64,000 nt of DNA from assembly GCA_964016885.1 (NCBI GenBank), contig OZ024740.1:330212001-330276000 (forward strand), in the 5' to 3' direction. This document shows positions 266-36,003 of the stretch, in pieces (the first letter of the stretch is position 1; each line of letters opens with the position of its first letter). The position numbers and the translations under genes were made by a program. This stretch comes from Eledone cirrhosa (lineage: Eukaryota). The notes below the pieces were generated by a model. The model saw nothing but the letters and a program-made list of their open reading frames with translations. It was not told the origin of the DNA and did not search any database.

Positions 266-347
<82 letters not shown>

Positions 348-482
348 TACTTGGGGAGGGTCATATTTGTGTAATATTGCCAGAATTAATAACAGAACAC
401 ACTCACTGTTTGGTTGGTTTTCGCTTCTCGCTGTCTTTTATATCGGTAATCTAACTTATGTTGCCATTGACTGACCTACGGT

Positions 483-1341
483 CAGAGGGTACTTGCAGAA
501 ACATGACAACAACATACATAGGTGAGACAGCTCGTAGCATAGGTGAAAGGATAGACCAACACTGGGGGGAACTAAAAGGACGAAAAAACGGGGCAGTACT
601 ATACGAACATGCTAGACAACAACATGACGGTAACATAGACAACATAGAAATTAGAATAATATCTAAACATAGAAATGGCCGAGCAGATAGGCAAATCAGA
701 GAGGGCAGTGAAATAGAAATTAGAAGACCAAAGCTAAACAGAAAGAATGAATGGAATAACAACACCCAAACAAACAACACTGACCTAAGAGAAGTATAAA
801 TAAGTAAATAAAATAAGATAAATAAATAAATAAACACATACACAAGCACAATAACAACAAGCACATAAACACACACTAGTCACCCATCACACAGCAAACA
901 TAACACTATACACACACGGAAACGCATGCGCAAAGAAGACAAAATAAAATAAACAAACAAGCAAATAAATAAATAAATATATAGACAGACTGAATAAAAA
1001 TGGCGTAGACATACAACACAACAGGAGGAAAATATAACACCACTGACGTTGTTGCAGATGTGCAACGAAAGATTTATGATAAACTATATATATGTGTTCG
1101 TGTCTATATTGTATCTGTATTATTTTTGACCGTCGGTCAGTCAATGGACCCATTGAGGACCGAGTAAGTTAGATTACCGATATAAAAGATAGCGAGAAGC
1201 GAAAACCCACCAAACAGTGAGTGTGTTCTATTATTAATTCTGGCAATATTACACAAATATGACCCTCCCCAAGTATAATAATATTTGTTTCGACACACGA
1301 TTTCATATAAAAAACCTCGCAAAACCAATTCATCGCCGCTA
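483..1341 (+). repeat. 5' pseudo-LTR (copy of the EN tail, 3'UTR and ORF start)
   Basis: Near-identical to 4567-5422. ORF 458-799 repeats the GIY-YIG C-terminus of 4386-4880. Confidence 0.92.
1036..1099 (+). ncRNA. Degenerate hammerhead-like motif in the PLE pLTR (second copy about 5117-5180)
   Basis: ctgacgt-t-gttgca-gatg-tgcaac-gaaa here and cggacga-t-gttgca-gatg-tgcaac-gaaa at 5124-5151. The consensus of the two is CUGACGA-U-stemII-GAAA. Stems I and III are weak. Confidence 0.55.
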
Positions 1342-4300
1342 CGGCATTAGCTTGTGCCAAGCTGAAAGGTTATTGAAAGACACTGTTTTCTGTTATATAA
1401 AACTACAATAACAACAGAACAAATCCGCTTCTTAAAACACTGTGTTTCCTCCAAAACATACACAACAAACATATCAAAACAAGTAAATAATTTATTATTG
1501 AACAAAACACAAGCCGAACGACTAAAACACACAATAACAGTTAATATGAAAAGAACAACATACACAAAAGTCAACGAACTTTACAGACAGAAACGCATTA
1601 ACGGTAAGGAAATCTGAAATCTCATCACACCAAACGAGAAGGATAACTTCATGAGCGTCATCCGACGTGAAACGAAATGCGCTCGAAACGAATGCAATAG
1701 GCATTTCAATAAGAAAATAGAATGGATGAATAAGAGAAAACTACAAGAAAGGAAAATCGAATATTCTCAAAAATACCCAGATAACATCGACAATATCCTT
1801 ATGACTGATGTAAAAATACCGGAAGAATTTATCAATGACCACACAGTAAATATCTATGGGAACACTTTAATCAGTGAACAAGAACAACAAATCCTGCGGC
1901 TACCACCAAAATTTGCCATCTACAAAAAGATTAACCCTATGGAGTGCAAAACGGAGCTGGAAAAGTGTTTCACAAAAATACGTTGGAATGCAAAGGTAAA
2001 CAACAACAACAATAATAACGGTAGTAGTAATATAAACAATAACTCTGAGTATAGAAATAACAGCCATAACAATAACAATAGCAGGAAAGTGAGAAATAGT
2101 GATAGTGGTAATAATACTAGCGATAGACAGAACAACAACAACCACAATAATAATAATAATAGAAACATTAACCACAGACACAGCAACAGCGACCACAATA
2201 GTAATAACGGTAACAATACGAACAACAACAACAATAACCACAGTGGTAATAATGGAAATAGTACATGTAGCAACATCAATGATAGACACAACAAAAACAA
2301 GAAACATAATAAAAGTAACAACCACAATGGTAGAAATAACAGTAACAACAACAACAATAACGGTGAAGTAAACAACAATACATCTAGCAATCATAACAAT
2401 AATAATAATGCTAATGATAGAAACAATAACAACCACCCTGATAAGAACAATAGCAACACACACAACTATGACGATAGATATAATGACAACCCCTTAGAGA
2501 AACTATTTTTCAACCCAGCTGACAAAACATATAAGATGGGTAATATCTATCCTACGAGGTTACCCTTTAATAAAAGAGTTTGCATACCACAACAAATAGA
2601 TGACGAGACAGAGGCACAGTTCACCATAGCTAGAAATAAGATTAGACAAATAGTATACAGGTATACTAAGAGACAGAGCAGACCAGGGGCCCAACAACTT
2701 GGGAGGAAACCTGTAGAAGGCTTGGTTAGCCTCAAGCAGCGCACAAGGGATGGTGAGGTAGTGTGTCTACCCACGGATAAGTCTGGTAGGATGTCAATAG
2801 ATAGCATGCCGAACTACATCGAGGCTGTGCAAACCCACGTCACCAACACGAGCGAAATTGCACAACAAACACACGATGCGAGAGAAAAAATCCTCAAAGC
2901 TCACATGATGATGTGGACTGTTCCTAAAGCCAAGCAGACGCACTGCCAACAACTTCCAGGCGTCTAACAATGGCATACCACCCTTGTATGGGCTCCGCAA
3001 AGACCACAAGACAGTCGACGACCCGACAACAGGACCACCAAAAAGACCAGTATGCGGAGCTAATATAGCTAGCAAATACAGGATCTCCTACTTCCTCTCA
3101 ATGGTTATACGCCCCATAATCAAGATGTCCCCAGATGTATGTGACAGTACAGAGGATCTCCTCAGCAGAATCAGTGAGTGCAACAAACAGAGGAGCCTAT
3201 CCAACTGCATAATAGGCAGCATGGATGTGGTGTCACTGTACCCATCCATTAACATTGATTTTGCTGTGAAAAGATGTGTGGAGATGATCATTGAGATTGA
3301 GGTGCAGTTCTGCGACGTCGACACAGACGAACTGCGCCTCCTACTTAGACTTACCTACGCCACTGACTACCTAGACAGCCATGACCTTAGATGTTTCTGC
3401 CCTAGTAGACCTATAAGAGGTAGAACCCCCACCATAACCTCAATGGCAAAAAAGACTCCCATGGGAAGGTGGATTGGGTGGACCAAAGCTATACGGACCC
3501 ACCAAATCAAGGATCAGGTAAGAAAAATGGTCGCACATGCAATAGGAGCTAGTATCAAAACTACCCTAAAGGGCCACATATTTAAGTTCAATGAGAAAAT
3601 CTACACCCAAAATGAGGGAGAAGCCATCGGCGTCAGCATAGCTGGTGATGGTGCCAACCTTTATATGGTATGGTGGGAAAGGAGACTTAAAGATCTCCTT
3701 AATGAAAGCTCCATAGACCTCATCATGTACTCTCGTTATGTAGACGATATCAATATAGTTATAAGAACACCCCCACTAGAGAGCACTAACAAGTTTGATT
3801 TAGAACGTAACACGATGGAAAGCATCCAGCAGATAGCTAATTCCATACACCAGAGTATAACTGTACCTATCGACTTCCCTTCCAAACACCCTATCAATAG
3901 ACTACCTGTATTAGACACAGAACTCTGGATTAACACTATAGACGAGAGAGCCCAAATTCTCCACTCACACTATGCTAAACCCGTGGCCTCCAAATACCTG
4001 ATACTCAAAAACTCAGCAATGTCCAGTAGTGCTAAGTTTAATATTCTGATCGCAGATTTGGTACGAGTGATGAAGAATGTGTCCCGCATGTGCGACCCAA
4101 CAGAAATGGAAAGACACATCCAACACTTCATCAACCACATGCAGTTCTCTGGCTACAACCAAAGAGACAGAGTCAGAGTATACGAAGGAGCCATGGAAAA
4201 GTATAAGACCCTCATAGAACTGGACATGAAAGGAATTTGCCCATTATACAGGAGCAAATCATGGAATAGCTTAGATAGGGCTAGACATCAGATAGGGAAA

Positions 4301-4880
4301 GCCACCTCATGGTACGACAACCAGAGATACCAGAGTGTCATGTTTGTGGACGCCACCCCTGGAGGGAAATTAGTGTAGAAAGGCCATGAGAAAGACCCAT
4401 TTAAAAATAAAGGTGGTAGAAAAGCCAGGAACCACCATAAAATCCCTGATCAGCAAAACCTACCCTTTTAAGAAAACCCCCTGTACCAATAGGAAATGTA
4501 TCATATGTAAGGTGAACCCCCGGATAAACTGTAAAACTAGAAACGTAGTCTATAGCATAAGATGTACAGAGGGTACTTGCAGACACATGACAACACCATA
4601 CATAGGTGAGACAGCTCGTACCATAGGTCAAAGGATAGACCAACACTGGGGGGAACTAAAAGGACGAAAAAACGGGGCAGTACTATACGAACATGCTAGA
4701 CAACAACATGACGGTAACATAGACAACATAGAAATTAGAATATCTAAACATAGAAATGACCCAGCAGATAGGCAAATCAGAGAGGCCAGTGAAATAGAAA
4801 TTAGAAGACCAAAGCTAAACAGAAAGAATGAATGGGATAACAACACCCAAACAAACAACACTGACCTAAGAGAAGTATAA
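1259..4880 (+). pseudogene. Frameshifted PLE polyprotein (N-terminal domain, Asn-rich insert, RT, Cys linker, GIY-YIG endonuclease)
   Basis: Motifs PTDKSG, YGLRKDHK, RPV, SMDVVSLYPSI, QNEGEAIG, RYVDDI, LPVLD, CTNRKCIIC, NVVYSIRC..C..YIGETAR..RIDQH..H, REASEI..PKLN. Split across ORFs 1651-2967, 2984-4378 and 4386-4880. The probable ATG (MTLPKYNN) is at 1259, inside the pLTR. Confidence 0.92.
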
Positions 4881-5422
4881 ATAAGTAAATAAAATAAGAT
4901 AAATAAATAAATAAACACATTCACAAGCACAATAACAACAAGCACATAAACACACACTAGTCACCCATCACACAGCAAACATAACACTATACACACACGC
5001 AAACGCATGCGCAAAGAAGACAAAATAAAATAAACAAACAAGCAAATACATAAATAAATATATAGACATACTGAATAAAAATGGCGTAGACATACAACAC
5101 AACAGGAGGAAAATATAACACCACGGACGATGTTGCAGATGTGCAACGAAAGATTTATGATAAACTATATATATGTGTTCGTGTCTATATTGTATCTGTA
5201 TTATTTTTGACCGTCGGTCAGTCAATGGCAACATTGAGGACCGAGTAAGTTAGATTACCGATATAAAAGACAGCGAGAAGCGAAAACCCACCAAACAGTG
5301 AGTGTGTTCTGTTATTAATTCTGGCAATATTACACAAATATGACCCTCCCCAAGTATAACAATATTTGTTTCGACACACGATTTCATATAAAAAACCTCG
5401 CAAAACTAATTCATCGCCGCTA
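4567..5422 (+). repeat. 3' pseudo-LTR
   Basis: Direct repeat of 483-1341, ending at (TA)n. Confidence 0.92.
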
Positions 5423-5429
5423 TATATAT

Positions 5430-5700
5430 ATGGTGGTGCTCTGAAATAGCGATATATATATGAATGTATGGTTCTCCTCAGAGCTTAGCACTCCCTTTGC
5501 CTCAAGGCAAAGGGAGTGCTAAGCTCTGAGAAGTACCAACAGTACGAATCAGAGATCTCTCAGCTTACCTACCTTTGTTTGCTGAAAAATGAAGTAAGTG
5601 ACATAGTCACTACGTTAAAACAATAGAGTAAGGTCATCAAAATGCTTTTAATTAAGCATGCAGTGTATTGCAAAATACACTATATATAAGTTCATATACA
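5430..5700. mobile_element. Short non-coding element related to the 35.1-36.0 kb and 24-27 kb repeat family, with a 26-bp-arm palindrome and a degenerate HHR
   Basis: Shares gctctgaaatagcgatatata and atgcttttaattaagcat with those arrays. Palindrome at 5477-5530. HHR-like string agct-ctgagaa-gtac-caaca-gtac-gaat-cagagatctc-tc-agct. Confidence 0.7.
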
Positions 5701-5736
5701 GTATATATATATAGATATACTGTATATCTATATCTA

Positions 5737-5811
<75 letters not shown>

Positions 5812-5814
5812 ATA

Positions 5815-5871
<57 letters not shown>

Positions 5872-5879
<8 letters not shown>

Positions 5880-6231
5880 GTGAGGTTTTTTTTACAAAAT
5901 GAAAAATAACCAAGTGTCCTACACGAGTGAAAGTATAAAGAAAAGGAGATGAAATCGAAAATGCAACTGGAGTCTTATTTTTTTTTTGAATATATATATT
6001 TATTTGGTTCCTTTACCGGTTTCGCAGTTCTTCTGCTTTTCAAAAGGTGAGTTGAGATGGAGGGTCTGTGGTTTTTCTCACACGTGAGAAAAACCACAGA
6101 CCCTCCATCTGAACTCACCTTTTGAAAAGCAGAAGAACTGCGAAACCGGTAAAGGAACCAAATAAATATATATATTAAAAAAAAAAATAAGACTCCAGTT
6201 GCATTTTCGATTTCATCTCTTTTTCTTTATA
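5872..6231. mobile_element. Fold-back element (family B) in (TA)n carrying two variant HHRs
   Basis: About 5934-6080 is the reverse complement of about 6084-6231 (centre tctcacacgtgaga). (TA)n on both sides. Confidence 0.88.
6118..6155 (+). ncRNA. Minimal type I hammerhead with UUGAAAA core (U3:A8 variant)
   Basis: cctt|ttgaaaa|gcag aagaa ctgc|gaaa|ccgg|ta|aagg: stem I cctt/aagg, stem II gcag/ctgc, palindromic stem III ACCGGU, GUA site. Copies at 6010-6047(-), 6746-6783(-), 7911-7948(+) and 23744-23781(+). Confidence 0.75.
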
Positions 6232-6242
6232 TATATATATAT

Positions 6243-6302
<60 letters not shown>

Positions 6303-6581
6303 TAATAAAATAATGAATAAACAAAGAAACAGTTCCTTATATTAAAAAAATTCATCATTTTACGATCGTTTCTAGGATATTTATGTGTTAGAGTTGGTAT
6401 GCATATTCTATAGATCTATGTACAATATTTATACAAACTATCAGAGGGAATATACATACCTACAAATATATATGCTGTCTTCAGAACTAATGATATTTGT
6501 TTATTGAAAAAACAAAGATTCAATACAATAGGTCTGTTTGGGAACAGGTTTTGAATCTTTGTTTTTTTCATTATTTTTCAT

Positions 6582-6607
<26 letters not shown>

Positions 6608-6614
<7 letters not shown>

Positions 6615-7303
6615 GTGAGGTTTTTTTTACAAAATGAAAAATAACCGAGGTGTCCTACACGAGTGGAAGTTTAAAGAAAAAGAGATGAAATCGAAAATGC
6701 AACTGAAGTCTTATTTTTTTTAAAAATATATATATTTATTTGGTTCCTTTACCGGTTTCGCAGTTCTTCTGCTTTTCAAAAGGTGAGTTGAGATGGAGGG
6801 TCTGTGGTTTTAGTCACATCTGGTTGGTCTCTAAATGTTACTTGTTTTATATGGAAAAAGTGGCTCGAAAGCCAGGTTTTTCGAGAAGTAATTTGATTGG
6901 TTTGTCAATAATTATAATAAATTTCGCGCCAGTTCGCGCCAGTTCGCGTTACAAGAGTTCTTCAAATAAGAGAGGGGGGGTTGTCACAGGTTGTTTTTTC
7001 ATATATGAGTGTTTGAATTTCTTTTTACTTTGAAAAATGAGGCTCACGAATGCTTTTTTTTGGTTGGTTATAAATGAAATTTGGCTGTCACGTGAACAAG
7101 TTTTCATTACATTTTTGTGCCCTTATTTGGAAAACTATTCTGTAGTCTTCATAGTGAATGTTATGACAATGGAGAGATAGTGGTCAAGGGAAAAGGGATT
7201 GGGAGAAATGTTCTGGTTTAGTGAATATGGCCAGCTGTCAGAGTTCAGGTGTCAGATTTCAGATTTTCTATTGAGACTGAAGATGTGTTTATTTGTGTGC
7301 TTC

Positions 7304-7338
<35 letters not shown>

Positions 7339-8017
7339 ATGTGTGTATTGGAAGATGATTCTATTAGTAGAGATGGGGGAGGGAGTTCTGTGTGTGTGTG
7401 TATATGGGTGTTACGTGTGTGTGTGTGCGAGTATGTTAAGATGGAGAGAATATATATTTTGTGTGTGTGTATATATATATATATGTGTGTAGGAAAGTGG
7501 TTCTATTAGTAGAAATGGGGAGGGAGTTGTAGGTGTGGGGGTTGTTATGTGTGTGTATGGGTGTTATGTGTGTGGGAGTATGGTTAGCATGTTAAGATGA
7601 AGAGAATATATATATATATATATATATTGTGTGTGTGTGTATGTGTGTGTGTAGGAAAGTGATTCCTTTAGTAGGAAGATGATTCTATTAGTAGAGATGG
7701 GCGACGGAGTTGTGTGTGTATATGGGTGTTATGTGTGTGCGAGTATGTTAAGATGGAGAGAATGGCGCGAAATTTATTATAATTATTGACAAACCAATCA
7801 AATTACTTCTCGAAAAACCTGGCTTTCGAGCCACTTTTTCCATATAAAACAAGTAACATTTAGAGACCAACCAGATGTGAGAAAAAGCACAGACACTCCA
7901 TCTCAACTCACCTTTTGAAAAGCAGAAGAACTGCGAAACCGGTAAAGGAACCAAATAAATATATATATTTAAAAAAAAAATAAGACTTCAGTTGCATTTT
8001 CGATTTCATCTCTTTTT

Positions 8018-8022
<5 letters not shown>
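6608..8022. mobile_element. Longer family-B element with inverted arms (about 6672-6930 and 7764-8022) around a GT-rich minisatellite
   Basis: The arms are reverse complements. An internal repeat of roughly 120 bp (gattctattagtagagatgg...gtatgttaagatggagagaat) spans 7350-7762. (TA)n flanks. Confidence 0.85.
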
Positions 8023-8148: not shown

Positions 8149-8209
8149 TTATTTTATCTGATGAGGGCGTACCAAATGTTGGTACCCTTGAAATATATAT
8201 AATAAAATA
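8149..8209 (+). ncRNA. Type I hammerhead ribozyme (family C)
   Basis: tattttat|ctgatga|gggcgtacc aaatgtt ggtaccctt|gaaa|tata|ta|..ataaaata, within a ~160-bp element between (TA)n tracts. Confidence 0.7.
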
Positions 8210-9785: not shown

Positions 9786-12700
9786 CTATAGGCGCATGGT
9801 CAGAGTAGGCCCATTCACACGAGCCATTCTCGCCACATTCACCCACCTTTTAGCAAATGTACTGGGGGGCAGCACTTCTCTCTCCACCCTCACCTTCCTT
9901 TCCAGGTGAAACTTGAAGAAGTTGATGAGGGATTGGCCGAAGAGAAAAGTGTCTGTCTTAGGTCCTTTTAACCTGGTTCACCATATAACCTCTTTCGCAA
10001 CTGCCACCAGACAGAGGAAAGTTTCCTGCTCTTCCTTACCTAAGGAAGGCGGTGGATCGATCTTCACTATGAACTCGGCCGATAGCCGGATTCGTTCCAC
10101 ACGCGACAGTAGCTGTTCGATATAACTCCACAAGTCAGTAATGCACGGACATTGGACAAGTGCGTGCAGAACGGTTTCGTCGTTCTCTGCGCATCTTGGG
10201 CAGGTCCGTCTGACAGCATGTCCGTGCCTGTAGAGTTTATCCCGAACCGGCAGTGCCGCCCGATAGCACTGCCAATAGACAGATTTCTGGAAATTGTCCA
10301 TCGTCCCCTGCTCAAAGGTCCTCCGGTACAGACTGGTCAGTTCGACTTCGTCGAGGACCAAAGCTTCTCCGAGTGCGTCATCGCACTTGCCCACCACTAA
10401 TCCTCTATAGAACTCGAGAGTGGAAGTTCCACTGATCGCATTGCCCGCTTGGTAGAGGTCAGTGAGTGCCTGGCAACATTCCAGGTGCCAGTCACCCAGT
10501 CTCGGTCTCTTCTTGACCCAGGACTGCAGCTCAGTCAAAGAAATGAGCTGCGGAAAGGCCCGTCTGATAAACGGCGACCACACCTGTTCACCGTTGAGGC
10601 AGAATATCTGGAGATGTCGCAGCCTCAACGCATGTCTGCGCATCATTAGCCACGGCATGTCCAGCCCTCCGCGTAGAGGGTGTTTGCAGCAAATGGACCG
10701 TCTCACCAACGGAACTTGTCCTCTCCACAAGAATTTGAAGAGGAGCCGTTCCAACTTGACGAGGCGCGGACGGGGGCAAGGCACGACGGTCAGGCGGTAG
10801 TAGATGACGGACGCGATGTACGCACTCGCCACCTCCGCCCGACCTTTCAGTGATAGCTTCCTCCCAGCCCATTTTGGGGTGAGACTGGCTACTCTGCTCG
10901 TTACCTCGTCCCAATTCTTTTCCACCTGGAGGTCTCGTCCCAACCAAACCCCGAGCAACTTTATCGGTCCGTCCGTCCAGCGCCCCACTACGATTTTGGA
11001 CGGCATGGGCTTACCTCTCTAGGTTCCGAGTTGCAAGCCCACCGACTTTTCCGGGTTGAGTTTGGCTCCTGTCAACCTTTCATATTCCTTCAATAAGGTG
11101 CCGACCAGCTCGATTTCTGTGGTGTTCGACACCATCACGGTGATGTCTTCCGCATAAGCCGACACCGCCTTTCCACGTCCCGGTTCGAGCGGGATGCCCT
11201 GCAACAGCTCCAGCTTCCGCAGTAAAGGCTCGAGAGTCAATACGTACAGAAGGGAAGAGAGAGGGCACCCTTGACGGACCGATCGGGAGAGCCGAAATGG
11301 TTCCGAGAGGTGGTCATTAATCTTGACCACCGAGCGTGTGCCGCTGTACCTTGCAGCGATCCAGCTTCTGAAGACAGGGCCGAAGCCAGCTGCTTTGAGG
11401 AAAAACTCCAGATACAAATGGTCGACCCTATCGAATGCTTTCGATTGATCTAAATTGATCAGTTCCCCACCGAAGCCAGGTTTACACCCTACCCTCTCTA
11501 TGATGTATCGCATGAGGTGGAGTTGTCGTGTATGGACCTGGCTGGGTTGCGCAAGTTTGCGCCTCCCCAACCAAATCCTCGACGACAAGCGCCAATCTCT
11601 TTGCTAACACCTTGGTCAAAATCTTAAACTCTGTCTTGAGCAGAGTTATGGGCCTGATGTTGTCTAATGTATCCCTCTTCTTCTCGTCTTTCCTTATCAG
11701 CGTCACCACTCCCCTGCTAACAGAACTGGGAATACTCCCATTCTGCTGCCAGTTGCATAAAGTGCTTGGAGGAGTTCGGAGAACAAGTCTGGCATATTTA
11801 CGTAAATCTCGGAGGGCAGGCCATCCAAACCAGGTGAATTGCGCCTTATGCAGCCGACAAGTGCGTCCTGAATTTCCGCTGAAGTAATCGGCCTTTCGCA
11901 GCACTCAGCTTCGACCGTCGGGATGCGCGGAAAGCCGTCAAGATAGGGACTGAAATCCGCTACTCTCTCTGACTCGCCACTCTCCCCGAAAAACCGAGCA
12001 AAGTGCTGGCGAAAGGCCTCACACATCCGCTTGGAATCGCTTATCTCTTGTCCGTCTCGGTCCGCCAAAGACCGGATTGTTGTTTTATTACCACGCTGCG
12101 CCTCCGCCAATCGGGCCCATCGAACAGCTTTGGTTCCCTCGTCTCTCAGCGCACACGCCTTAGCTATGACAAATCAACCTTCGTGTTTCGCATTGAAGAA
12201 ATGGTCTAATGCCATTCTCGCCGCTAGCACGTCAGTTGCAATGCCACTACAAATAGCCTCGTCTAACTTATCTACCAGCTCTCCCTCCTTTCTATTTTTC
12301 TCTAACGCTAGTTCTTTGCTGAACTCTATCGAAGTTACTCTAATCTCTCTTTTGAGAGCCCCCCACCATCTGTTGTTGATGATCCCCCCTGTCAACTTTT
12401 GCTTAACTAAATTGTTGACTCGGTCCCTGTAAGCCTTACGTGCCGGAAATGACATGTTCAGCTTCCAGTAACCCGGTCCTAACCTACGCGTTTTATCTAG
12501 GTCTACCGTACAGATCACAAATTTGTGATCTGAATAGGCGACCATTTTAAAAAGTGGGCAGCGCACACTATTTCTATCTATTTTCCTAATGAAGATCCTG
12601 TCTATATACGATCTAGATGACCCCATTCGGTTGGTCCATCTCCACATTGGCACATTAGGGAAATCTAGTCGATACCTGTCATACAGTTGGAACTGGCTGA

Positions 12701-13205
12701 GTAGGTGCTCGAGGCTTTTGCACCCCCCGCTACTATCGGCTAGTCCCACACAATCCCAGCGTGCGTCTAAGATGCCATTCCAGTCCCCCGCTAACAGTAA
12801 AGAGCGAGACGTACCCAGAAAGGTCTCCAGGCGCCTAAAGAAGTCCGATCGTCCGGCCCCTGCAGGGGCGTAGACGGCTAGCAGTCTAAAGGCACCACCT
12901 TTGCTACTGCTCACATCCATGACCACCAACTTACCATCCGAGTCCCGGAACATCGACCTTACCTCGAGATCTAGTCCTTTCCTAAACATTACTGCCACCC
13001 CACCCCCCATTCCCGGTCTGCTAACAGATGCGAAGATCTGATAGTCGTCGAAAATGGGGGCTAGTGCGCGCGTGTCGGTAATTCTGGTCTCGCTGACGGC
13101 AATCATATCCATTTCCAGCGACCTGAGGTCGTTGTGCAGGCAACCCTGCTTCCAGAATGACCCCAGGCCGCGAACATTTAAACTTCCTACTCTTAATATG
13201 GCCAT
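9786..13205 (-). pseudogene. Tx1/L1 ORF2: AP endonuclease, reverse transcriptase, C-terminal zinc finger; frameshifted
   Basis: SLNVRGL, SET, VYAP, GDWN, SYIDRIF, SDH, GPGYWKLN, SPGLDGL, RPITLL, LDQSKAFDRVDH, VRQGCPLS, YAED (mutated YADD), KLLGVWL, GGLDMP, CPRC..ETVLHALVQC. Confidence 0.93.
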
Positions 13206-13234
13206 ATTGGTAAACTAAGAGAGAGAGGGAAGGT

Positions 13235-23704: not shown

Positions 23705-23913
23705 TAGATGTGAGAAAAACCATAGACCGTCCATCTCGACTCTACTTTTGAAAAGCAGAAGAACGGCGAAACCGGTAAAGGAAGCAAATAAATATGTATA
23801 TTTTTTTAAAAAATAAGACTCCAGTTGCATTTTCGATTTCATCTTATTTTCTTTATACTTTTACTCGTGTAGGACACGTCGGTTATTTTTTCATTTTGTA
23901 AAAAAAACCTCAC

Positions 23914-23920
<7 letters not shown>
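23705..23920 (+). mobile_element. Family-B short element with UUGAAAA HHR
   Basis: Reverse complement of 5872-6080, lying between (TA)n tracts. Confidence 0.8.
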
Positions 23921-23969
<49 letters not shown>

Positions 23970-23973
<4 letters not shown>

Positions 23974-26900
23974 TGGAATAAATGCTCTGAAATAGCGATA
24001 TATATGTGAATATAGACATAGAATATTCGAAAATATTCTGTATGTTTATAATAAACATTTTGAAGACCTAATCGCTATAGAATAGAATACGTCACGTATT
24101 ACAATTAGATTCTCGATAAAAGAAAGGGAAGTAATCTACGCGTTTCATTCTTGTTAGAATTCATCAGGACTACATATCCAGTGCTTTTATCGAGAATGAC
24201 ACAGCTAGAGACTTATAGAATACTTAGCTGTGTACAGGAACTGGTTTGAAAGAGCGGTTGCCGGTCCGGCAGAAATTAGAAATTGGAATAAATGCTCTGA
24301 AATAGCGATATATATGTGAATATAGACATAGAATATTCGAAAATATTCTGTATGTTTATAATAAACATTTTGAAGACCTAATCGCTATAGAATAGAATAC
24401 GTCACGTATTACAATTAGATTCTCGATAAAAGAAAGGGAAGTAATCTACGCGTTTCATTCTTGTTAGAATTCATCAGGACTACATATCCAGTGCTTTTAT
24501 CGAGAATGACACAGCTAGAGACTTATAGAATACTTAGCTGTGTACAGGAACTGGTTTGAAAGAGCGGTTGCCGGTCCGGCAGAAATTAGAAATTGGAATA
24601 AATGCTCTGAAATAGCGATATATATGTGAATATAGACATAGAATATTCGAAAATATTCTGTATGTTTATAATAAACATTTTGAAGACCTAATCGCTATAG
24701 AATAGAATACGTCACGTATTACAATTAGATTCTCGATAAAAGAAAGGGAAGTAATCTACGCGTTTCATTCTTGTTAGAATTCATCAGGACTACATATCCA
24801 GTGATTTTATCGAGAATGACACAGCTAGAGACTTATAGAATACTTAGCTGTGTACAGGAACTGGTTTGAAAGAGCGGTTGCCGGTCCGGCAGAAATTAGA
24901 AATTGGAATAAATGCTCTGAAATAGCGATATATATGTGAATATAGACATAGAATATTCGAAAATATTCTGTATGTTTATAATAAACATTTTGAAGACCTA
25001 ATCGCTATAGAATAGAATACGTCACGTATTACAATTAGATTCTCGATAAAAGAAAGGGAAGTAATCTACGCGTTTCATTCTTGTTAGAATTCATCAGGAC
25101 TACATATCCAGTGCTTTTATCGAGAATGACACAGCTAGAGACTTATAGAATACTTAGCTGTGTACAGGAACTGGTTTGAAAGAGCGGTTGCCGGTCCGGC
25201 AGAAATTAGAAATTGGAATAAATGCTCTGAAATAGCGATATATATGTGAATATAGACATAGAATATTCGAAAATATTCTGTATGTTTATAATAAACATTT
25301 TGAAGACCTAATCGCTATAGAATAGAATACGTCACGTATTACAATTAGATTCTCGATAAAAGAAAGGGAAGTAATCTACGCGTTTCATTCTTGTTAGAAT
25401 TCATCAGGACTACATATCCAGTGCTTTTATCGAGAATGACACAGCTAGAGACTTATAGAATACTTAGCTGTGTACAGGAACTGGTTTGAAAGAGCGGTTG
25501 CCGGTCCGGCAGAAATTAGAAATTGGAATAAATGCTCTGAAATAGCGATATATATGTGAATATAGACATAGAATATTCGAAAATATTCTGTATGTTTATA
25601 ATAAACATTTTGAAGACCTAATCGCTATAGAATAGAATACGTCACGTATTACAATTAGATTCTCGATAAAAGAAAGGGAAGTAATCTACGCGTTTCATTC
25701 TTGTTAGAATTCATCAGGACTACATATCCAGTGCTTTTATCGAGAATGACACAGCTAGAGACTTATAGAATACTTAGCTGTGTACAGGAACTGGTTTGAA
25801 AGAGCGGTTGCCGGTCCGGCAGAAATTAGAAATTGGAATAAATGCTCTGAAATAGCGATATATATGTGAATATAGACATAGAATATTCGAAAATATTCTG
25901 TATGTTTATAATAAACATTTTGAAGACCTAATCGCTATAGAATAGAATACGTCACGTATTACAATTAGATTCTCGATAAAAGAAAGGGAAGTAATCTACG
26001 CGTTTCATTCTTGTTAGAATTCATCAGGACTACATATCCAGTGCTTTTATCGAGAATGACACAGCTAGAGACTTATAGAATACTTAGCTGTGTACAGGAA
26101 CTGGTTTGAAAGAGCGGTTGCCGGTCCGGCAGAAATTAGAAATTGGAATAAATGCTCTGAAATAGCGATATATATGTGAATATAGACATAGAATATTCGA
26201 AAATATTCTGTATGTTTATAATAAACATTTTGAAGACCTAATCGCTATAGAATAGAATACGTCACGTATTACAATTAGATTCTCGATAAAAGAAAGGGAA
26301 GTAATCTACGCGTTTCATTCTTGTTAGAATTCATCAGGACTACATATCCAGTGCTTTCTTTCAAACCAGTTCCTGTACACAGCTAAGTATTCTATAAGTC
26401 TCTAGCTGTGTCATTCTCGATAAAAGCACTGGATATGTAGTCCTGATGAATTCTAACAAGAATGAAACGCGTAGATTACTTCCCTTTCTTTTATCGAGAA
26501 TCTAATTGTAATACGTGACGTATCCTATTCTATAGCGATTAGGTCTTCAAAATGTTTATTGTAAACATACAGAATATTTTCGAATATTCTATGTCTATAT
26601 TCACATATATATCGCTATTTCAGAGCATTTATTCCAATTTCTAATTTCTGCCGGACCGGCAACCGCTCTTTCAAACCAGTTCCTGTACACAGCTAAGTAT
26701 TCTATAAGTCTCTAGCTGTGTCATTCTCGATAAAAGCACTGGATATGTAGTCCTGATGAATTCTAACAAGAATGAAACGCGTAGATTACTTCCCTTTCTT
26801 TTATCGAGAATCTAATTGTAATACGTGACGTATTCTATTCTATAGCGATTAGGTCTTCAAAATGTTTATTATAAACATACAGAATATTTTCGAATATTCT

Positions 26901-27219
26901 ATGTCTATATTCACATATATATCGCTATTTCAGAGCATTTATTCCAATTTCTAATTTCTGCCGGACCGGCAACCGCTCTTTCAAACCAGTTCCTGTACAC
27001 AGCTAAGTATTCTATAAGTCTCTAGCTGTGTCATTCTCGATAAAAGCACTGGATATGTAGTCCTGATGAATTCTAACAAGAATGAAACGCGTAGATTACT
27101 TCCCTTTCTTTTATCGAGAATCTAATTGTAATACGTGACGTATTCTATTCTATAGCGATTAGGTCTTCAAAATGTTTATTATAAACATACAGAATATTTT
27201 CGAATATTCTATGTCTATA

Positions 27220-27223
<4 letters not shown>
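23970..27223. repeat. 310-bp tandem array (retrozyme-like): about 7.7 direct copies (23970-26357) then about 2.8 inverted copies (26358-27223), in (TA)n
   Basis: Unit start aattggaataaatgc recurs at 23971, 24281, 24591, 24901, 25211, 25521, 25831 and 26141. Copies are almost identical. The strand switch is at gtgcttt|ctttcaaacc. Confidence 0.97.
26437..26479 (+). ncRNA. Canonical minimal type I hammerhead ribozyme, one per 310-bp unit (11 copies)
   Basis: gtagtc|ctgatga|attct aaca agaat|gaaa|cgcg|ta|gattac. Plus-strand copies at 26437, 26747 and 27057. Minus-strand copies at 24131-24173 and every 310 bp up to 26301-26343. Confidence 0.9.
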
Positions 27224-27259
<36 letters not shown>

Positions 27260-28429: not shown

Positions 28430-28970
28430 ACACACATTCATATTTGTCTTAATAGACACCTGAACTGTTGACCTCTGAACATGACTGCAACTCAATCAAG
28501 AAGAAAAGGACACTCTTCGACAAACCTACATTTGGCGCGAAACCAAATAACGCTAAAATAAATTTACACATACACGTGACTTCTAACGACCAATCAAAAT
28601 TGTTTTGACTACACAAATTTTTGCAACACGAATTGGCGCGAAATTTATAGGGCTATTCACATGACATTCAACAACCAACCAAATCTTAATACCTCCCAAG
28701 CCACTTTTTTCACATAAAACAGGAAGAATTTCCAAAACTGATCAGATTAGGGCAAACATCACGAGTACTCTATCTCAAAATTATTTTTGAAAAGCATAAG
28801 AAATGCGCAACCGGTAAAAACTTACAACTACAACTGAATACTAACTAATACTTATTACTAATTTATACTTATTCCTAATTAAACTATTTTTCACTGGAAA
28901 AAATTCGTCAGCATATTCTTTTCCTTTTTACAAATATATCACAACTCGTGTGTCACACCTAGATTTTTTA
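28430..28970 (+). mobile_element. Diverged family-B relative (partial copy at 37430-37590, minus strand)
   Basis: Shares ggcgcgaaattta, gccacttttt..cata.aaac and ttgaaaagca..tgcg.aaccggtaaa with 7764-8022. Confidence 0.7.
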
Positions 28971-35110: not shown

Positions 35111-36003
35111 TATATATATATATATGAATGTATATATAATGTATTTTGCAATACACTTTATGCTTAATTAAAAGCATTTCGAAGACCTTACGTTATTGTT
35201 TTAGAGTAGAGACAGTCTCACTTGCTTTACATTTTCAGCAAACAAGGGAGATAAAGCTGACAGGACTCTGTTTCGGACTTTTTGGTACTTATCAGAGCTA
35301 AGTACTCCACCTGTTTGCTGAAAATCATGAATGTTTGCTTCTTATAGAATTCTAGAAATAATCAGGAACTGATTATACAGTGCGGTTGCCGGTCAAGCAG
35401 AAATTGAAAATTAGAATTGGTGCTCTGAAATAGCGATATATATATATGAATGTATATATAATGTATTTTGCAATACACTCTATGCTTAATTAAAAGCATT
35501 TCGAAGACCTTACGCTCGTGTTTTAGAGTAGTGACAGTCTCACTTACTTTAAATGTTCAGCAAACAAGGGAGATAAAGCTGACAGAGCTCTGTTTCGGAC
35601 TTTTTGGTAGTTATAAAAGCTAAGTACTCCACCTGTTTGCTGAAAATCATGAATGTTTGATTCTTATAGAATTCTAGTAATAATCAGGAACTGATTATAC
35701 AGAGCGGTTGCCGGTCAAGCAGAAATTGAAAATAAGAATTGGTGCTCTGAAATAGCGATATATATATATGATTTTCAGCAAACAGGTGGAGTACTTAGCT
35801 TTGATAAGTACCAAAAAGTACGAAACAGAGCTCTGTCAGCTTTGTCTCCATTGTTTGCTGACAAATAAAGTAAGTGAGACTGTCACTACTCTAAAACAAT
35901 AGCGTAAGGTCTTCGAAATGCTTTTAATTAAGCATAGTGTTTTGCAAAATACACTATATATACATTCATATATATATCTCGATTTCAGAGCACCAATTCT
36001 AAT
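35111..36003. repeat. Two ~322-bp tandem units plus an inverted partial unit; older relative of the 310-bp array, with a variant HHR
   Basis: gaatgtatatataatg at 35126 and 35448, inverted part 35769-36003. Shares gctctgaaatagcgata, gaagacct, caggaactg and gcggttgccggtc with the 310-mer. Confidence 0.88.
35797..35841 (+). ncRNA. Type I hammerhead variant with UUGAUAA core
   Basis: agct|ttgataa|gtac caaaaa gtac|gaaa|cagagctctg|tc|agct. The minus-strand copy at 35255-35299 has CUGAUAA. Confidence 0.72.

Follow-up and report, generated by a model that had tools for sequence, protein, structure and literature searches.

The 64,000-nucleotide stretch of Eledone cirrhosa DNA analyzed here (hereafter the window) carries copies of a minimal hammerhead motif in which core positions 3 and 8 are U3:A8 in place of the canonical C3:G8. 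This raises the question of what kind of element carries the motif, and whether that element makes use of it as a ribozyme. A first-pass annotation, made from the sequence alone, had described five copies belonging to a mobile family, and all five were located at the sites given for them:

6010..6047, minus strand: minimal type I hammerhead motif; stem I CCUU starts at 6047, U3 at 6043, motif end at 6010
6118..6155, plus strand: minimal type I hammerhead motif; stem I CCUU/AAGG starting at 6118, U3-UGA-A-A8-A9 with U3 at 6122, stem II GCAG/CUGC, GAA, palindromic stem III ACCGGU, A17
6746..6783, minus strand: minimal type I hammerhead motif; stem I CCUU starts at 6783, U3 at 6779, motif end at 6746
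7911..7948, plus strand: minimal type I hammerhead motif (+39 to +76 from the predicted transcription start); stem I CCUU starts at 7911, U3 at 7915, A8 at 7920
between 7944 and 7945, plus strand: predicted cut site of the 7911..7948 motif
23706..23921, plus strand: single tailed copy of a TA subfamily, beginning exactly at +1; hammerhead at 23744-23781 with U3 at 23748 and a private stem II mismatch

The exact motif occurs four times in the window, compared with an expectation of 0.00 from 100 shuffles. The exact copies share the layout stem I CCUU, UUGAAAA, GCAG-AAGAA-CUGC, GAA, ACCGGU, A, AAGG, and all type I hammerhead core positions are present except for the paired swap U3:A8. The fifth copy carries ACUU in stem I and a CGGC mismatch in stem II. 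Both changes had been taken for single substitutions, which is correct for stem II, where the change is private to this copy, but not for stem I, where it marks a second subfamily defined by TA at +38/+39 and represented by about 40 of 80 sampled copies.

The helices of this motif are short. Stem I has only 3-4 bp, and the fold of the monomer is not better than those of shuffled sequences (z -1.25). Stem III, ACCGGU, is a 6-nt palindrome without a loop and therefore can form only between two molecules; when two motif copies are co-folded, they are predicted to pair through this palindrome. The expectation that a standard search would miss the motif was borne out, as there are no Rfam matches at gathering score in the window, although this test is insensitive here because it also failed to detect the canonical C3-G8 motifs that the window contains.

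The five motifs are pseudo-LTR (pLTR) copies of an autonomous Penelope-like element (PLE) that encodes a reverse transcriptase (RT) with a C-terminal GIY-YIG domain. The family had thus been correctly called mobile, but it had not been recognized as a PLE. Its parent was found by walking upstream from the longer copies, which yielded first the GIY-YIG C-terminus and then the whole unit in locus L104. This full unit reads pLTR, ORF1, RT/GIY-YIG ORF (ORF2), AC-rich 3′ UTR, pLTR, and is preceded by an inverted truncated copy. The hammerhead motif lies at 2843 and at about 7830, on either side of the ORFs, as in partial tandem pLTRs. ORF1 spans 3015-4241 (409 amino acids, stop to stop) and ORF2 spans 4154-6478 (775 amino acids). 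The ORF2 protein (P0001) has two Pfam domains above the cut-off in one frame, PF00078 (RVT_1) at residues 295-442 and PF01541 (GIY-YIG) at 682-772. Between RT and endonuclease (EN) lies the linker CGRSNCGTC, which fits the CX2-5CxxC motif of Neptune and Nematis PLEs (PMC8557442). By this Cys linker and its (TA)n targets the element fits the Neptune/Nematis type.

Relatives of ORF2 number 771 at E <= 0.001, and none exceeds 803 amino acids among the best 120 of these. Searches of metagenome and genome contigs with the single protein gave no relatives, whereas an alignment search did find some. PLE sequences (L266-L309) sit inside contigs filed as bacterial genomes or metagenome-assembled genomes; they are most likely animal DNA in bins, an artifact against which PMC8557442 warns.

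The window also holds other mobile elements. A different PLE on the plus strand (344-5420) has a partial tandem structure, its repeats lying near 480-1345 and 4560-5420. It has an ORF with an Asn-rich insert and frame breaks, and a C3:G8-type hammerhead near 1045 and 5125 with one core change per copy. Its ORF at 1618-4880 was considered as the parent of the five motifs and rejected, given that it has its own repeats and only 29% identity to P0001 over 76 residues. On the minus strand, 9978-13214 is a broken LINE with an APE endonuclease (PF03372) and a zf-RVT domain (PF13966).

Four of the five motifs lie within two head-to-head insertions in (TA)n, at 5872-6229 and 6607-8022, whose arms are as follows:

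5872..6082, minus strand: left arm of insertion 1, a tailed pLTR copy of the family (family A), same sequence as L104 2801-3020; its 5′ end lies near the predicted transcription start and its 3′ end runs into (TA)n
6084..6229, plus strand: right arm of insertion 1, an untailed inverted pLTR copy ending ...CTTTATA(TA)n
6607..7762, minus strand: left arm of insertion 2, a tailed copy 5′-truncated inside the AC-rich 3′ UTR
7763..8022, plus strand: right arm of insertion 2, an untailed inverted copy that includes the promoter region, with loose ends at 7763

The left arm of insertion 2 matches the 3′ end of the full L104 element at 94.5% over 1-1157. One tailed and one untailed arm were present in all 21 head-to-head pairs examined (18 directly, 3 showing the start of the tail). 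The tail is about 70 bp in family A, and the 3′ ends enter TA repeats in nearly all copies viewed. These features fit the published PLE layout of an inverted truncated copy with pLTRs (PMC8557442; PMC3846280). Downstream in the window, canonical C3:G8 hammerheads with a stem I of 8-9 bp are found at 8158 (+), 9129 (-), and 9298 (+), the last two forming a further head-to-head pair in (TA)n.

Genome-wide, the exact motif with positions 3, 7, and 8 left free has 12,494 matches, compared with none for a reversed control. At position 3, only 112 of these matches depart from U, and G8 occurs in 0 of the 100 matches listed. This agrees with the earlier proposal that U3:A8 is fixed across the family and does not reflect the decay of a single copy. 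A search with a downstream anchor gave 16,942 family A copies in the genome. Four contig runs of unstated kind list no change at position 3 or 8; they are uninformative on expression.

The presence of a non-canonical core in a successful family, part of what the first-pass annotation had proposed, is real, but it is not new. The U3:A8 swap is already published, both as natural covariation and as a PLE family trait, and the present case extends it to a further host. Perreault et al. (2011; PMC3088659) reported that C3/G8 covary to U3/A8 in several natural hammerheads that are active in vitro. Cervera and De la Pena (2014; PMC4209133) described U3-A8 in Cercyon PLEs of Schistosoma mansoni, with about 1,300 hits and with 761 motifs in family Sm3. 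The same authors reported that these motifs escaped their first descriptor, noted motif pairs on opposite strands, and found that minimal hammerheads of PLEs have low activity, and only as dimers. In the window, hammerhead-like cores with A8 opposite U3 or C3 also occur in a 322-bp repeat family (35114-35845 and 5515-5570), which has UUGAUAA at 35801 (+), CUGAUAA at about 35295 (-), and CUGAGAA at about 5526 (+).

Family A resembles Cercyon in having a minimal type I hammerhead in its pLTRs, with U3-A8, a high copy number, opposite-strand pairs 100-700 bp apart, and a motif missed by the standard descriptor. It differs in its 4-bp stem II, which lacks an additional base after A9, and in its palindromic 6-nt stem III. 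Family A copies also show much greater uniformity and exceed those of Cercyon in number roughly tenfold, and their element encodes two ORFs and a Cys linker. With the Neptune/Nematis EN+ PLEs described by Craig et al. (2021; PMC8557442) it shares the RT, the CX2-5CxxC linker, the C-terminal GIY-YIG, pLTR tandems bearing a hammerhead, an inverted 5′-truncated copy, a tail at one end, and (TA)n targets, whereas its tail of about 70 bp is longer than the 30-40 bp reported for PLEs of this type. For PAc, a Poseidon element of Anolis, RT was shown to start at two internal sites, which produces the tail (Frangieh et al. 2024; PMC11167929); the main template is uncut RNA, and targets are AT-rich, much as we find here. 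However, PAc belongs to another clade, has a canonical C3-G8 core, and has a single ORF that starts inside the hammerhead.

Non-LTR retrozymes likewise combine a type I hammerhead with a palindromic stem III in animal repeats. These are short, non-coding, head-to-tail tandems, whereas family A is autonomous and inserts head to head. A retrozyme identity was rejected, since family A has RT/EN coding capacity and the copies studied here lie outside tandem arrays. A retrozyme-like array does occur elsewhere in the window (23970-27232), with 310-bp units that are 99% identical, a canonical hammerhead in each, and a strand switch at 26357.

Whether the motif is used can be approached through the 5′ ends of inserted copies, for which the start of transcription is the point of reference. 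The right arm of insertion 2 contains the following predicted features:

7764..7873, plus strand: predicted Pol II promoter, with GGCGCGAAA at 7764-7772, CCAAT at 7794-7798, and TATAAAA at 7843-7849 (-30)
7873, plus strand: predicted transcription start (+1) in initiator-like CC/AGATG

We take these to be E2F-like, CCAAT, TATAAAA, and initiator-like motifs, and similar promoter-like motifs are present in a sister family, family B. A hairpin AGAUG...CAUCU (7873-7903, plus strand) starts at the predicted +1 and coincides with the most frequent inversion junction; family B has an equivalent.

We mapped the 5′ ends of 100 family A copies chosen by the downstream anchor only. Just over half (51/100) start between -2 and +12, compared with 5/100 between +68 and +78 and 3/100 at +72/+73 (the predicted cut falls immediately before +73). 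Junctions counted by eye genome-wide gave about 35-42 at +73 among 100 listed of 260, and about 67 of 81 at the +75 control, a value inflated by microhomology at fold-back junctions, which could mask a small excess at +73. No sharp peak of 5′ junctions marks the cut site across the genome, and +73 accounts for roughly 1% of copies. Of 32 family B copies, none has its 5′ end within 3 nt of the cut; an apparent pile-up of family B 5′ ends at -140 was rejected as an artifact of the reference copy. Because about half of the family A copies begin at the predicted start and about 1% at the cut site, the templates for insertion are mostly uncut RNA. Cutting of the RNA itself is still compatible with these data. 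Similarly, it is reported for PAc that its ribozyme needed PLE protein and that cutting was dispensable for insertion in vitro (PMC11167929).

On balance, we favor the explanation that the pLTR hammerhead is a slow self-cleaving RNA, assisted by dimerization or protein, whose action is not needed to make the insertion template. Under this proposal, transcription would start in the pLTR at +1. The element protein would nick (TA)n and start reverse transcription from two positions within the RNA, spaced by about 70 nt, which would account for head-to-head copies of which one has a tail and the other does not. In a minority of transcripts, two hammerheads may pair via ACCGGU, which would complete stem III and permit a cut after A17. 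The change to U3:A8 presumably occurred a single time, in the common ancestor of A and B, and preserved the 3-8 pair. The annotation had gone further in stating that the family uses the ribozyme. The family does carry a hammerhead fold with fixed U3:A8, but use does not follow, given that insertions derive mostly from uncut RNA and that a sister family with a changed core thrives.

This sister family is represented in the window by one copy:

28699..28822 (copy 28787), plus strand: family B copy with U3:A8, compensated stem II GCAU/AUGC, and C13

The family B core reads UUGAAAA, GCAU...AUGC, G-C-A-A, CCGGUA, with C at position 13. A13 of the hammerhead core is normally required. The family B motif nevertheless has 11,383 genome-wide matches with a base other than A at this position (C in 99 of the 100 listed), compared with 42 that carry A13 with the same stem. 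The latter were entertained as an old subfamily, an idea that proved wrong; they are rare family B variants (42 of 85 listed). Stem I of family B consists of three A-U pairs only. Relative to family A, its proteins are 56% (ORF2) and 43% (ORF1) identical, and many 784-amino acid RT/EN frames are intact. Family B is also represented at L176 (5633), L178, and L182. Position 13 also varies in an outside relative, L188, whose two pLTRs, near 168 and 4102, have GCAA and GAAA, respectively. We found no relevant paper on A13C in hammerhead ribozymes, though Lunse 2017 could already cover this change, and the retention of U3:A8 together with A13C was not found in print. The text of Perreault et al. 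(PMC3088659), which describes the same compensated 3-8 pair, does not mention the A13C change seen in family B.

Comparison of these families with their relatives indicates how the fold has been maintained. Between families A and B, the motif is 77-82% identical, compared with 50% for the upstream sequence, 42% for the downstream sequence, and 32 of 93 four-fold sites. One window just upstream of the motif, containing the 5′-end hairpin, is also 77% identical, and thus conservation is not confined to the hammerhead. Covariation is evident among 16 aligned motifs of related families, in which 10 of 11 pairs are altered on both sides and 90.3% of cells are paired, versus 60.5% in shuffles. These figures lean upward because the rows were selected by a scan that requires pairing, and six of the seven U-A rows come from one lineage. 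The 3-8 pair is C-G in nine motifs, U-A in seven, and broken in none. Because the fold covaries between families, it is under selection.

Of 124 outside loci, 24 were inspected, and the motif was legible in 14, of which 12 have C3:G8 and 2 have U3:A8. A third family in the same genome (L184) has C3:G8. In a quick, midpoint-rooted tree, families A and B group together (support 100) among C3:G8 relatives. Given this nesting, U3:A8 was likely derived once in the A/B lineage, and separately in L199 and L271.

The strongest competing explanation is that the hammerhead-derived fold no longer cuts and is kept for RNA dimerization through the palindrome or for protein binding during RNP assembly. In its favor, family B has fixed A13C (11,383 versus 42), yet keeps ACCGGU and compensates changes in stem II. 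Likewise, ACCGGU is common to relatives L187, L188, L192, and L194 at 44-52% protein identity, templates are mostly uncut, family B copies do not start near the cut site, and Naiad PLEs thrive without canonical hammerheads (PMC8557442). Against this, family A retains every catalytic position, the compensatory 3-8 swap argues for selection on an active fold, at least at its origin, and U4, G5, A6, A9, G12, A14, A15.1, and U16.1 are invariant in all 16 related motifs, family B included. We consider a fold that no longer cuts to be rather less likely than slow, assisted cleavage.

The A13C core and 3-bp, all A-U stem I of family B, at equal abundance, suggest that catalysis may be dispensable in the A/B lineage. 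A tentative extension, which we would not bet on, is that this lineage is converting a ribozyme into a non-cutting RNA element in which the fold and palindrome are selected, or else that A13C is a new active variant of the core. If conversion is occurring, its path would run from C3:G8 to U3:A8 in the ancestor and then, in one branch, to A13C with an all A-U stem I, with each branch expanding past 11,000 copies through uncut templates. A comparison of A and B would then amount to a natural experiment on the purpose of PLE hammerheads. The wider question is why nearly all PLEs keep a hammerhead whose cutting is poor and dispensable in vitro. Families A and B make it directly testable: both sister families are young and intact, their start, cut site, and tail are defined, and core position 13 distinguishes them. 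Descriptors built on CUGANGA and GAAA overlook more than 23,000 motifs in the E. cirrhosa genome, as had been anticipated for CUGANGA-type searches.

A further possibility is that cutting is efficient in vivo and that the cut RNA leaves the transposition pool by decapping, degradation, or circularization, such that insertions record only the uncut fraction. Insertion ends are indeed blind to RNA that is never copied, cleavage would detach the 72-nt capped 5′ end that immediately precedes ORF1, and the few copies that start at +73 are perhaps a few-fold over local background. We nevertheless judge this quite improbable, because the stems are short, there is no recognizable loop-loop contact, low activity is reported for the class, and no RNA-seq ends were found at the cut site for a Poseidon PLE (PMC11167929).

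Finally, the motif could be a functionless relic carried passively, with U3:A8 fixed by descent from one master copy. The annotation had proposed to set conservation of core and stems against that of the flanks. Across 80 family A copies, divergence is 1.15% in the core (11 of 958 cells), 1.6-2.9% in the flanks, and 1.9-3.8% in the stems, and the core is kept no better than N7 (1.25%) or loop II (1.28%), although such a comparison within a family is uninformative because inserted copies decay neutrally. A relic is hardly credible and is largely refuted by the covariation between families, where the motif remains 77-82% identical, with compensatory changes, while synonymous sites approach saturation (34%).

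The coding region of these elements departs from the usual PLE description. In family A, a separate ORF1 of 400 amino acids overlaps, in the -1 frame, with the RT ORF. Craig et al. (2021; PMC8557442) describe a single ORF for canonical EN+ PLEs, although their Fig. 1 legend mentions an optional ORF1 frameshift for a clade that the legend text leaves unstated. Two such overlapping ORFs are present in all three junction-spanning copies of family A, a departure from the single-ORF description and not from RT/EN identity. The same overlap was found at 11 of 13 junctions (the other 2 are cut or broken) from eight families, comprising A, B, and six outside relatives, at these loci:

L104, 4154-4244: overlap of ORF1 and ORF2
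L176, 7097-7166: overlap of ORF1 and ORF2
L186, L187, L188, L192, L194, and L267: overlap of ORF1 and ORF2

ORF1 has no Pfam hit, and its Atlas matches are to Gag-like clusters at 0.85 or less, which serve only as a lead. All 11 junctions carry an in-phase slippery site, U UUU UUA in nine and U UUU UUG in two. A search of the literature on frameshifting in PLEs with Neptune gave no relevant paper, though Arkhipova 2017 could already cover it, and the in-phase -1 site in families A, B, and the six relatives was not found in print. In both families, A and B, ORF2 has its first AUG downstream of a conserved GLKF motif, and therefore a programmed -1 frameshift is likely in this group of EN+ PLEs. 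The conserved site provides a separate lead on how EN+ PLEs set the ratio of ORF1 to RT.
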